Assembly: GCA_040755035.1 (NCBI GenBank)
Contig: JBFMBU010000030.1
Location: 41,045-105,044, forward strand
Reading direction: 5' to 3'
Length of the DNA stretch: 64,000 nt
Source of the DNA: Thermodesulfobacteriota bacterium
Lineage (GTDB): Bacteria > Desulfobacterota > RBG-13-43-22
Shown piece after piece: positions 14,020 to 18,830 of this stretch; positions within the stretch are counted from its first letter, which is position 1, and each line of letters opens with the position of its first letter. The position numbers and the translations under genes are program-made. The notes under the pieces were generated by a model. It did no database searches. It had not been told where the DNA came from and worked only from the letters and a program-made list of their open reading frames with translations.

Positions 14020-14772
14020 ATGGATCCCATACAAGGCATTGGTTTTGATTTATTCAACACCCTGATTACCGCCGACCCCGCAGCTTTAGGTGAAGCCATG
14101 CACCGCATGATCGGCAGTCTCCGGGCAAGCGGGATAGGCTTAGAAATGGAACCCTTTCAAAAGGCCTACCGCGAAGCGGCCATGAGGTTTGTGGCGGAAA
14201 GTAAGGCGGAAGGCAAAGAGACCCACAACCGTTTTTGGATAAGCGCTGCCTTGAGGACCTTAGGCCGGGACCTGGGACCTGAAGACACAGCGGTTGCCAA
14301 AGCGGTGGAGGCCTATTTTTCCACTTTTTTGGATTATTGCCGTCTGATCCCTCAAACCCTGGAAATGCTTGCCCTGCTGAAGGGGAAGTTTCGCCTCGGG
14401 CTTTTGTCTAATTTCACCCATGCCCCGGCAGTAGAAGGACTTCTGAACAAATTTGGCCTGACCCCTTTTTTTGACACGGTCCTGGTGTCCGGGGCCTTGG
14501 GCTTTAGAAAACCCCACCCCCTGGTTTTCGAAAAGTTGGTCCAGGACTTGAGTTTAGAAAGGAAGCATATACTCTATGTCGGCGATAGCCTGGACCCTGA
14601 TGTCACCGGAGCGGTCCAGGCCGGATTGCGGCCGGTATGGATGACCTATGTACAGGACCATCACCTGCCGGTTTTTCCTCCTTACAGCGTCCCTTCAGAG
14701 CAAACCTTTTCCCGGGAATTGCTCAGGGTCTCCAATTGGGAAGAATTCCTTAACCTGCTGGGGCTGGCCTGA
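14020..14772 (+). CDS. HAD-superfamily hydrolase
   Basis: N-terminal FDLFNTL motif and C-terminal YVGDSLDPD motif. Confidence 0.7.
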   Translation: MDPIQGIGFDLFNTLITADPAALGEAMHRMIGSLRASGIGLEMEPFQKAYREAAMRFVAESKAEGKETHNRFWISAALRTLGRDLGPEDTAVAKAVEAYFSTFLDYCRLIPQTLEMLALLKGKFRLGLLSNFTHAPAVEGLLNKFGLTPFFDTVLVSGALGFRKPHPLVFEKLVQDLSLERKHILYVGDSLDPDVTGAVQAGLRPVWMTYVQDHHLPVFPPYSVPSEQTFSRELLRVSNWEEFLNLLGLA

Positions 14773-14828
14773 TTTTTTCCCTAAGGGGGGCAGCATAATA
14801 ATTGTTTCAAAAGATGGGCTCACAAAAA

Positions 14829-14968
14829 GTCGAATGCTGTCATTTCGAAAAGGGAACCGACGAGAAATCTTTTCGGTCGATTTCATCGACCTTAACAGGA
14901 GATCGGCAAGTCGGTCGGGCCGTTCGACTTGGTCGAACTAAGAAACCGACCGGTCGAAATGACAAAAA
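14829..14968 (+). promoter_or_regulatory. GTCGA-rich nested-palindrome element in the leader of the radical-SAM operon; terminal 11-bp inverted repeat TGTCATTTCGA...TCGAAATGACA
   Basis: Seen directly: tgtcatttcga (about 14838-48) and tcgaaatgaca (about 14954-64), plus internal IRs ggtcgat/atcgacc and gttcgac/gtcgaac. Confidence 0.4.
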
Positions 14969-15020
14969 AGGATTTTCCGACTTTCTACGAAACCATCTTT
15001 AGAAGGGTTAATCGTAGACG

Positions 15021-15911
15021 ATGGTTGAGATCGAAGATGAAATGGAATATGAGGGGATGGTCATCCGGCCTCCCAGCGAGGCCTATAGCATCCTGCTCCA
15101 GGTTACGGTGGGCTGCTCCCATAACAAGTGTTCCTTTTGCGCCACGTATAAGGACAAACGCTTCCGTATAAAAACGAATGAAAGAATTTTAAAGGACATC
15201 CTTTTTGCCTCCCAATATTGCCGGAGGCAGGACAAGGTCTTTCTGATGGATGGGGATGCCCTGATCATCCCCCAAAAACGGCTGGTCTGGATTTTGGAAA
15301 GGATTAGAGAACACCTTCCCTGGGTGAAAAGGGTGGGACTTTACGCCAATGCCAAAAGCATTGGTATGAAAAGCGATGAAGATTTAAAAACCCTCAAGTC
15401 CCTCGGCTTGGGGATTGCTTACCTGGGAGTGGAAACCGGCCATCCCGAACTGCTTAAAAAAATCAACAAGGGAACCTCCAGAGAAAACCTGATCCTTCAG
15501 GGTAAACGGTTAAAAAAAGCGGGGATCAAACTATCGGTTACTGTTTTATTGGGAATCGGCGGCCAGGAACTAACGCGGGAACACGCCTTGGCCACGGGAT
15601 CTTTGCTCAGCGAAATGGATCCGGATTTCGTCGGGGCCCTGACGGTCATGGTTCTGCCCAACACCCCCCTGGGCAAACAACTGACCGAAGGCCAATTCAA
15701 GCCCCTGACCGTTCCCGAGATCCTGACCGAACTGGGGGAAATGGTGGCCGCCACCCGGCTTACCCGGGGATATTTTTATTCCAACCACGCCTCCAACTAC
15801 CTGCCCTTGAAAATAAAATATCCCGAAGGCCAAGAGGCGGCCTTACATCTGATCGAAAAAGCCATACAGGGCGGGGTGGGCCTGCGTCCGGAATGGCAGC
15901 GGGGATTATGA
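15021..15911 (+). CDS. Radical SAM protein with non-canonical Cx4Cx2C cluster motif (CSHNKCSFC)
   Basis: GCSHNKCSFCA motif, glycine-rich SAM-binding region. Alternative start at Met13 (about 15057) has the better RBS (gagggg). Confidence 0.8.
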   Translation: MVEIEDEMEYEGMVIRPPSEAYSILLQVTVGCSHNKCSFCATYKDKRFRIKTNERILKDILFASQYCRRQDKVFLMDGDALIIPQKRLVWILERIREHLPWVKRVGLYANAKSIGMKSDEDLKTLKSLGLGIAYLGVETGHPELLKKINKGTSRENLILQGKRLKKAGIKLSVTVLLGIGGQELTREHALATGSLLSEMDPDFVGALTVMVLPNTPLGKQLTEGQFKPLTVPEILTELGEMVAATRLTRGYFYSNHASNYLPLKIKYPEGQEAALHLIEKAIQGGVGLRPEWQRGL

Positions 15912-15997
15912 GATGAAGACTAAGCTAATTGACAGTGGCCGCAATAGTATCTACAATTGGTTTATTATCATATCTATCTAAAAGGAGAAAACAGACC

Positions 15998-16276
15998 ATG
16001 GCCAACGATCCAGAAATCGGACAAAAAGTGGTGGCAACCATCACCGGAGTAAAAGGCAAATGCAGCGCCGGGCATCAGGTGGGGGACACCTTTGAGATCA
16101 GTTGTCATAATCCCGCCGGCTTGTGCGGCTATTTTTACCATGACCTTTTCCCCAATCTTTCCACCTTCCAGTTCGGCGGCACCTTGCCCTGGTGGCAGGG
16201 CGACACGATTACGGCCCAGTGCCCGGATTCCTATAACCTGGTAACCATGAAGCTGGAAAGGTTGAAACGGGACTGA
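15998..16276 (+). CDS. Small Cys-rich protein resembling the TIGR04076 family
   Basis: About 93 aa from MANDPEIGQK, with conserved-looking GKCxAGH...GLCGYFYH...GGTLPWW...CPD blocks, immediately downstream of the radical SAM gene. Family recall is from memory, not a search. Confidence 0.55.
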   Translation: MANDPEIGQKVVATITGVKGKCSAGHQVGDTFEISCHNPAGLCGYFYHDLFPNLSTFQFGGTLPWWQGDTITAQCPDSYNLVTMKLERLKRD

Positions 16277-16456
16277 GAAAACCATCCTGAATCAGCGGTA
16301 AGCAGGTTTGCCCTTGACAGGAGTGAGCGATGTGTTGCGGGGGTATTATTCTATGTTGCTCTTTTTAACAGGCAACCCGTAACCGGCAGCAGGCAACATG
16401 GTGCCGTTGATCAGTCTGAAATACTGGTCAAAAAAAGGGAAATCTTTCAGGTCTTT

Positions 16457-17887
16457 TTAAAACCTTATTCTCACCCGATAGCGGAGTTTGCTTTCTTTGT
16501 CTTTGGGGACCGGAAGGTCAAAGGCAATGGTCGCCGCATCCTGCTTTTTATAAGGAAGGGATTGCTCCAGGACCTTCCAGTCCCCGGGCAACGGTTCGAT
16601 AATCCGGACCACCACATCTTCTTTCTTGTGATTTCGGATAGAAATTTCATAAGCGGACTCATAAGTATCTGAGGCCAGTTTTTCCCAATGGGTTTGTTTT
16701 CTTTCCGCCTTGAGGTCGAAGGCCTCCCCTAACTTCAAGCGCACCTTTTCATCCTTGGGGGTGTGATCGATAGTATCTTCTCCAATAAACTGCAGACTGC
16801 CCTCAGCGTCCCTTTTATAGGCCCTGACCGTGCCCTTGGGCAAAGGCATTCCCAAACGGTTTTCCTTGGCATTGATTAATTGGATATGGACCCCGACTTT
16901 TTGATTGGATAGCACCTCCCCCTGTCGGTTTCGGTAATAATACTGGGAACCGTAATAGGTGAATTCTTTGGTTACCGGAACCCGGTCCACGTTCAAGAGG
17001 CTGATCTGCTTGGTCTGGTTTTCCTTAAGGGTTGTTTTCCTCTCCAGGGTGTAGATATGATACTCGAAAAAAGAGTCTTCTTTGAACGGCGGGGCAGCCG
17101 CCTCTTTGGCCATGACCATGGCCTTTCGGGTTTTTACTAAATCTTCCTGCACCTGATGAATGTCTCCAGCCACCAGCTTTAATCCGGCATTCCGGTAGGC
17201 AGCTCCGCTTTTATTATCTATGGTCACCCAACCGGAAAGATCGGCCATAGTATCCTGAGCATTCAATACTAAAATATAATCCGACTTCCAGTTAATGCCC
17301 TTAGTCAGGTAAAGGGCTTCGATTTTCTGGGATTGGGTCATTCCATTATTTAAAAGCCAGACCAGGGTTGGTTTGGAGATGAGATCGGGAGGGATTTCAG
17401 GAAAAAGGATTCTCCCCGGATGATTGAAGGTGATGTCCTTTCCGATCTGAAAGACCGGCTGGTTGTCATTGTTGGCCAGCAGGACGGCGGAGACCATTTC
17501 CTCCCGTTCGGTATAGTAGTTCTTGGTGAAAAGTTTGACTTCCTTGCCCACATATTTATCCAGCAGTTTCCTGGGATTCAAGAGATCGTATTCATAATTC
17601 TGTTCCAGGACGGAAAAGGCCCCCGTATCTTGAAGGGATCGGATGGTGACGCTGGAGGGGATAATCTGTGCGGCTACATCCATAAACTTAAGTTCCTGCA
17701 CCCCTTTATCCAGGCGAACCTGCCTCTGGTCCTTGACCAACCCCAGATGGCTGTTGTAGACGGTCAACTCCAAAGCCACCTGATCTTCCTGGGTGGTGAT
17801 TTTTTTCTCCTGGGCCGGGAGTGGGACGGGAAGGAGAAGAAAAATAAAAAAAATAACCGCGATATTTTTTATCCAAGGCATATACAC
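16457..17887 (-). CDS. Secreted DUF4139/DUF4140-like (MuiA-like) protein
   Basis: Signal peptide; domain assignment is a recollection of the family and is low certainty. Confidence 0.45.
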   Translation of the reverse strand: MYMPWIKNIAVIFFIFLLLPVPLPAQEKKITTQEDQVALELTVYNSHLGLVKDQRQVRLDKGVQELKFMDVAAQIIPSSVTIRSLQDTGAFSVLEQNYEYDLLNPRKLLDKYVGKEVKLFTKNYYTEREEMVSAVLLANNDNQPVFQIGKDITFNHPGRILFPEIPPDLISKPTLVWLLNNGMTQSQKIEALYLTKGINWKSDYILVLNAQDTMADLSGWVTIDNKSGAAYRNAGLKLVAGDIHQVQEDLVKTRKAMVMAKEAAAPPFKEDSFFEYHIYTLERKTTLKENQTKQISLLNVDRVPVTKEFTYYGSQYYYRNRQGEVLSNQKVGVHIQLINAKENRLGMPLPKGTVRAYKRDAEGSLQFIGEDTIDHTPKDEKVRLKLGEAFDLKAERKQTHWEKLASDTYESAYEISIRNHKKEDVVVRIIEPLPGDWKVLEQSLPYKKQDAATIAFDLPVPKDKESKLRYRVRIRF

Positions 17888-18053: not shown

Positions 18054-18830
18054 TTAAAAACGAAGCGACAAACCCAAATACGGTCCTCCGACCTTGACCT
18101 TGGCGTAATCCGGATCATTGCGGGCCTCAATATCCACCAATCTATACCCCCCGCTTATACTGAAATTTTTAAAGGGAATCACCTTAACTCCGGCCTCGGC
18201 CTCCCACATGGTTCCATACTTTCCGGCCGGCAGTCCGGAGACCTCGGCAAAAATATTCAGGTAGGGAAAGGGGTTGACATCCAGGGCCAGGCCCAGGGTG
18301 GGCAGCACCGCATAAAAGCTCCCTCCCTTATCAATGGGAGTGGCCAGGTCCGGGGCCGCCAGTGAAACCTCTCCCTGAACGCCTTTAAGTTCCACCAGGG
18401 TGCCGGCTTTGAATTTGCCCCCCTCCAGATTGATGAACTGGTAGGCCCAGCCCAAGCGCATATAATGCATCTTCAGGTCTGAGACCACCCGGATATTCGC
18501 TTCATAGGTTTCCCCGCCGAATTCCACCTTCCTTCTTAAGCGGGAGTCTCCCCCATAACTGACCGGGGTATAGGTGAAAGCCAGGCGGTTTGAAGGATTG
18601 AAAGAGAAAGTGAAACGACCGTAGGGAAAATTTTTATCCCCCACACCTAAATCGGATTTCAGATTGATATCCGTCCCCTGGTTGTTTTGGGTAAACTTGG
18701 TTTCAGCGGATAAGGTGGTGAACCAATACCGAGCGTCGAATTCAAAGGGAGTCTCTTGGGCCGTTACCACTGAAGCGGCCAAAAGCCCAAATCCGACAAT
18801 AACCCACAGCGTTTTTTTCCACATAACCAT
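18054..18830 (-). CDS. Outer-membrane beta-barrel protein
   Basis: Signal peptide (LLAASVVTAQE), alternating beta-strand pattern, C-terminal F. Confidence 0.6.
   Translation of the reverse strand: MVMWKKTLWVIVGFGLLAASVVTAQETPFEFDARYWFTTLSAETKFTQNNQGTDINLKSDLGVGDKNFPYGRFTFSFNPSNRLAFTYTPVSYGGDSRLRRKVEFGGETYEANIRVVSDLKMHYMRLGWAYQFINLEGGKFKAGTLVELKGVQGEVSLAAPDLATPIDKGGSFYAVLPTLGLALDVNPFPYLNIFAEVSGLPAGKYGTMWEAEAGVKVIPFKNFSISGGYRLVDIEARNDPDYAKVKVGGPYLGLSLRF

Follow-up and report, generated by a model that had tools for sequence, protein, structure and literature searches.

The spacing Cx4Cx2C between the cysteines of a radical SAM (rSAM) motif has been documented in OxsB (PMC9204698) and in archaeal Elp3 (PMC2996862), and this and other spacings are recorded for whole rSAM subgroups in RadicalSAM.org, for example Megacluster-4-11 (PMC9477430). 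The variant motif is therefore a known phenomenon at the family level. For TIGR04076, a family of small uncharacterised proteins, published functions are guesses only: the member encoded beside islAB in Bilophila was linked to redox or iron-cluster metabolism by annotation only, and the islAB cluster that it adjoins includes a radical-activating rSAM enzyme (PMC8667426). Our literature search found no characterised member of TIGR04076 or of the Cx4Cx2C rSAM family described below. Genes of these two families lie side by side in the window, a 64-kb stretch of DNA. A first-pass annotation had interpreted them as an uncharacterised two-gene rSAM system, a candidate for protein maturation or peptide modification, preceded by a structured leader. 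We found that the identities it gave to the parts hold, but that the two-gene system does not.

The two genes belong to a run of three on the plus strand. The run begins with a HAD-superfamily hydrolase of 250 aa (14020–14772), assigned by the Pfam models PF00702 and PF13419, both above their cut-offs; every NCBIfam equivalog model stayed below its own cut-off. The single-domain rSAM protein (296 aa, 15021–15911) follows after a spacer of ~250 nt, and the TIGR04076 family protein (92 aa, 15998–16276) after a second spacer of 86 nt. For the latter ORF, the best start is the ATG at 15998, which is preceded by a AAAGGAGA ribosome-binding site, and the stop lies at 16276; the length of 93 aa originally given for it includes the stop codon. 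Read-through co-transcription of all three genes is possible. Upstream of the run lies IleRS on the minus strand, and a DUF4139 gene converges on it from downstream. This convergent gene encodes a DUF4139/DUF4140 protein of 476 aa (16457–17887, minus strand) with weak similarity to the MuiA family and an apparent signal peptide, and it is syntenic in three related loci (L085, L086 and L091). A TIGR04219-like outer-membrane beta-barrel protein (18054–18830, minus strand) is likewise encoded downstream in convergent orientation.

Residues 30–40 of the rSAM protein read VGCSHNKCSFC, which places C32, C37 and C40 in the Cx4Cx2C arrangement (CSHNKCSFC; codons at 15114–15140, plus strand) reported by the first-pass annotation, a variant of the canonical Cx3Cx2C; the three cysteines are predicted to ligate the [4Fe-4S] cluster to which SAM binds. 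The sole Pfam match of the protein was the generic Radical_SAM model PF04055 (65.5 bits against a cut-off of 29.5, residues 27–182), and no B12-binding, SPASM/twitch or RRE domain was detected with Pfam. Among NCBIfam models, the best match was HpnJ with 44 bits against a cut-off of 577.6, followed by PhpK, MnmL/YtqA, HemW and, further down, Elp3, all far below their cut-offs. Since every NCBIfam score fell so far short, no characterised family claims the protein, as had been supposed from the start.

The protein belongs to a family of stand-alone proteins of ~290 aa with at least 8,000 members (all candidates scored were matches), which is represented by 475 clusters at 50% identity when an E value of 1e-30 or lower is applied. 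Of 270 homologues retrieved, 259 have the Cx4Cx2C motif; the 11 exceptions are mostly fragments truncated at the N terminus. When 51 diverse homologues (35–83% identical to the query) were aligned (alignment A1), the cysteine triad was invariant in all 51, and C32, C37 and C40 were the only conserved cysteines. Further blocks shared by the family are RPPSEA before the motif, FLxDGDA, YxGxExG, NHASNYL and a C-terminal RPExxRGL. We take Cx4Cx2C to be a trait of a large family of stand-alone rSAM proteins rather than a local oddity, unusual but, given the documented cases, not new. In at least 90% of members, the RPExxRGL tail (residues 288–296 in the window's protein) retains R294 and L296, mostly at the extreme C terminus. 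Conservation at the very end of a protein is unusual; this tail may serve as a docking motif or extend into the active site. In distant clusters of the family, the names given by the sources are merely generic (e.g., 'radical SAM superfamily enzyme YgiQ'), and the extensions of longer homologues contained no Pfam domain. One protein of 443 aa (P0361) joins the N-terminal half of the rSAM protein to the C-terminal part of a pyruvate kinase, an apparent fusion that is probably a chimera of assembly or gene calling.

The structural model shows the rSAM protein (296 aa) as one barrel domain, in keeping with the partial or full (beta/alpha) barrel of the superfamily. In structural comparisons, the highest score was obtained for MgmA (18.2), followed by RimO (17.3), MiaB (16.8), MqnE (15.9) and Elp3 (15.5), at sequence identities of 12–20%, and a profile search of PDB sequences returned OxsB, Elp3 and MgmA at E values of ~1e-9 to 1e-10. 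The protein is similar to the catalytic cores of class B enzymes, methylthiotransferases and Elp3-type enzymes, but lacks their B12 domain, second cluster, GNAT and TRAM. Compared with the class B cobalamin-dependent enzymes MgmA (PDB 9CCB), OxsB (5UL2), HpnJ and PhpK, identity within the rSAM core is 15–17%, whereas the Rossmann-like cobalamin-binding domain is missing and the motif begins at residue 32 of only 296; the NCBIfam matches to HpnJ and PhpK span nothing but the rSAM cores (HpnJ: profile positions 200–386 of 472). RimO and MiaB differ from the window's protein by an N-terminal UPF0004 domain, which carries the second cluster, and by TRAM, whereas the latter has just three conserved cysteines. 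In contrast to the tRNA-modifying enzymes Elp3 and MnmL (YtqA), it has no GNAT/acetyltransferase domain; the sequence match covers only part of the barrel, and the Elp3 model TIGR01211 gives 21 bits where its cut-off is 350. B12-dependent methylation is ruled out by the missing cobalamin domain and by scores far below the family cut-offs. A role as a glycyl-radical activase was considered and rejected: there was no activase model among the NCBIfam matches at E ≤ 0.01, and no glycyl radical enzyme was evident in the surrounding ORFs.

The small protein encoded downstream, described as TIGR04076-like in the first-pass annotation, passes the curated NCBIfam cut-off of that family (E = 8.5e-15; 55.1 bits against 33), with residues 10–90 aligned to positions 3–90 of the 91-position model. 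It had no Pfam match and no relative among solved structures. Its motifs GKCSAGH, GLCGYFYH and CPD, which had been pointed out as conserved Cys/His blocks, are not a product of chance: C22, H26, H37, C43, H48 and C75 are invariant among the homologues, and C36 is nearly so (30/31). The homologues are conserved over their full length at 72–92% identity, and the close ones are labelled 'TIGR04076 family protein' by their sources; compared with this family, the window's protein is a plain member that shows no difference. In total, 315 matches to the TIGR04076 subfamily were obtained, compared with the thousands for the rSAM family. An apparent internal repeat, GDTFEISCHNP (residues 29–39) and GDTITAQCPDS (residues 68–78) with one cysteine per half, fits the JGI label 'uncharacterized repeat protein'.

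The proposal of a two-gene system failed on co-conservation, which we examined from both sides. On the rSAM side, we sampled one genome per species and collected 80 orthologue loci (53–80% identity, up to 6 kb per side), almost all of them from Desulfobacterota and 76 with at least 500 nt of downstream DNA; the search was run with a narrower alignment (A2), as the 51-sequence alignment was too divergent. By tblastn, TIGR04076 was found in none of the 80 loci (0/76 with sufficient downstream DNA), and all four positive controls, the TIGR04076 carriers L001–L004, were detected. The HAD, DUF4139 and IleRS neighbours were equally missing from the 80 rSAM loci of other species genomes. On the TIGR04076 side, 80 metagenome loci with homologues 69–91% identical to the window's protein were examined, 58 of them with at least 600 nt upstream. 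The rSAM gene was present in a single one (1/80, or 1/58 with enough upstream DNA), namely L091, a fully syntenic close relative of the window. Two TIGR04076 homologues on long contigs (74–77% identical) adjoin an SDR gene, or genes for an aldo-keto reductase and a glyoxalase, and no rSAM gene lies within 6 kb on either side of them. A Pfam census of 128 immediate TIGR04076 neighbours was led by class I methyltransferase (8), DUF169 (6), EamA (5) and GNAT (5), with Radical_SAM outside the 25 commonest families. SDR, aldo-keto reductase or glyoxalase genes were also seen near TIGR04076 in L001, L004 and L088. Across the loci L091–L170, the subfamily combines extreme conservation (72–92% in many lineages) with the lack of a fixed neighbour.

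The neighbours of the rSAM gene itself are variable, the commonest in the 80 loci being transketolase (23/80), while a small UPF0016-like membrane protein was encoded nearby in 12/80. Contexts of distant family members were read from the loci L171–L174, L178–L180 and L181–L182. One such gene, from an organism abundant in metagenomes, follows a CBS-domain gene at a distance of 4 nt, with DUF1846 further upstream, and its protein occurs in 1,640 blocks of the metagenome collection. Another is flanked by an Aminotran_5 gene and by rlmN, which overlaps it, with spoU and miaA nearby, and a third by genes for a Zn-peptidase and an enoyl-CoA hydratase.

Among close relatives, the pair is retained. 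TIGR04076 adjoins the rSAM gene in relatives whose rSAM protein is 95% (L086/L087), 86% (L091), 84% (L085) and 81% (L088–L090) identical to ours. It does not adjoin in L175 (81%), L005 (80%), L176 (78%) or the more distant P0075 (69%); in L176, a HAD and a metallo-beta-lactamase gene lie upstream of the rSAM gene and nothing lies downstream. Because the pair is present at 81–95% rSAM identity and broken in three relatives at 78–81%, the arrangement is confined to one narrow lineage of Thermodesulfobacteriota, which is Desulfobacca-like according to the names of the homologues. The HAD gene adjoins the rSAM gene in L085, L086, L088 and L091, and is one gene away in L176. The outer flanks of the trio vary, with IleRS, MBOAT or a CoA-binding protein upstream and DUF4139 or AP_endonuc_2 downstream. 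That the trio is kept in close relatives despite these differing flanks could reflect a functional link specific to the lineage.

The spacer between the HAD and rSAM genes contains a nested imperfect hairpin (14806–15004, ~200 nt) formed by four inverted-repeat pairs (I1, I2, I4 and I3), with a folding energy of −79.4 kcal/mol (z = −3.0) that is better than that of all 200 shuffled sequences. Its proposed role as the leader of a conserved system was not borne out, as it is not conserved and has no Rfam match. At gathering scores, Rfam had no match in the whole window, and at E ≤ 5 the region 14700–16500 gave none but a chance CRISPR-DR match at E = 5. In L086/L087, the relatives with 95% rSAM identity, the corresponding spacer measures 92 nt; its first ~40 nt are shared with the window and the hairpin is missing. 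In the other relatives, L085, L088 and L091 among them, the spacers span 111–402 nt and show no sequence relationship to that of the window. No second copy of the hairpin was found within the 64-kb window. By these sequence comparisons, the hairpin is an insertion specific to the lineage rather than a regulatory leader that has been conserved. Its absence from a relative with a 95% identical rSAM protein suggests that it was inserted recently, as a palindromic or MITE-like element.

The 86-nt spacer 5′ of the TIGR04076 gene contains a sigma-70-like promoter, TTGACA-17-TACAAT (15929–15957, plus strand), recognised by consensus match only (11/12 positions). L086 (TTGACA-17-TACAAT) and L085 (TTGACA-17-TACTAT) have these hexamers too, at identical spacing. 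As they are kept there although the spacers are otherwise divergent, the TIGR04076 gene seems to have its own promoter in the window's clade. Upstream of TIGR04076 genes in general, sigma-70-type sites showed no enrichment over shuffled sequences, and the promoter argument is therefore limited to that clade.

Since both families almost always occur apart, we consider it likely that the rSAM and TIGR04076 genes are independent and have come to lie together through local synteny in one narrow lineage, rather than forming a system. The main competing explanation, which we judge to be unlikely, is a lineage-specific module in which the HAD, rSAM and TIGR04076 proteins work together within the window's clade. 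There, for example, the rSAM protein might have the Cys/His protein as its metal or Fe-S redox partner, chaperone or carrier, and a phosphorylated substrate or product might be handled by the HAD phosphatase. The three genes share one strand, at least four loci with rearranged outer flanks (the window, L085, L086 and L088) and also L091 retain the trio, and the redox or iron-cluster role guessed for the islAB-adjacent protein of Bilophila, by annotation only, would suit such a partnership (PMC8667426). However, all trio loci are close relatives (81–95% rSAM identity), among which shared ancestry alone can explain the synteny, and relatives at 78–81% identity no longer have the pair. The overwhelming separation of the two families elsewhere and the promoter-like site between the two genes also argue against a module. 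Moreover, with at least 8,000 members against 315 TIGR04076 matches, the rSAM family is far the larger, so most of its members cannot depend on such a partner. A narrower version, in which the trio was recently assembled and the rSAM enzyme has in TIGR04076 either a dedicated partner (metal or Fe-S) or a protein substrate, is somewhat less probable again; if true, it would offer a first way into the function of two large families that have none assigned.

Far less probable than either is a RiPP or protein-maturation locus, in which the rSAM enzyme would modify the nearby-encoded TIGR04076 protein or a small unannotated ORF. An rSAM gene paired with a small Cys-rich ORF looks, on the surface, like a sactipeptide- or ranthipeptide-type locus, and MgmA, the nearest match in structure, acts on a protein. 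Yet the maturase or peptide-modification role put forward in the first-pass annotation finds no counterpart in the enzyme, which has three conserved cysteines, no detected SPASM/twitch or RRE domain, and a match to PF04055 alone. Nor does the presumed substrate behave like a precursor: TIGR04076 proteins are conserved over their full length, the opposite of a leader/core peptide, and occur without the rSAM gene in 57 of 58 informative loci. A search for precursor-like ORFs led to six candidates (17–66 aa) in three spacers, none with a significant or syntenic counterpart in four close relatives, and the largest of them sits in the non-conserved hairpin. No transporter or protease was prominent among the commonest rSAM neighbour clusters. 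We give just as little credence to a riboswitch or leader-controlled operon, in which the upstream RNA would sense a ligand and control rSAM and TIGR04076 together. The hairpin's stability relative to shuffled sequences speaks for a structured RNA, but it matches no Rfam family even at the relaxed threshold, is missing from the 95% relative and was not seen upstream of the rSAM gene in the five related loci examined, whose spacers differ in sequence or length. A long palindrome of this kind also looks more like an inserted repeat element than a ligand-binding fold.

If the two genes are independent, as we favour, each protein would have its own function. By analogy with the superfamily, one [4Fe-4S] cluster would be bound by C32, C37 and C40 of the rSAM protein, with SAM on its fourth iron; reduction would lead to cleavage of SAM to a 5′-deoxyadenosyl radical, which would take a hydrogen atom from the substrate. 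This substrate may be a molecule common in cells, be it RNA, protein or another macromolecule, or a general metabolite, rather than a dedicated peptide from a neighbouring gene. This is a best guess, offered with low confidence; it is based on a family that is widespread, consists of single-domain proteins and has no fixed partner, and on nearest structural relatives that modify RNA or proteins. As the protein carries no auxiliary cluster, cobalamin domain or peptide-recognition domain and its family has no conserved operon partner, a common substrate seems most likely. The overlap with rlmN and the proximity of spoU and miaA in one distant member are a weak hint at RNA modification. For the TIGR04076 protein, in turn, with its seven conserved Cys/His residues, the most likely property is binding of a metal or an Fe-S cluster. 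Its gene would be served by a promoter of its own in the window's lineage, and elsewhere it stands beside many unrelated genes.

Both genes are thus ordinary members of catalogued, uncharacterised families, and their apparent system is probably an accident of local gene order. More generally, a small Cys-rich ORF beside an rSAM gene is insufficient evidence for a maturase/precursor pair. The lasting value of the locus lies in the families that it represents, above all a very large (at least 8,000 members) and strongly conserved Cx4Cx2C rSAM family with its RPExxRGL end, whose lack of a fixed operon partner points to a general cellular substrate.
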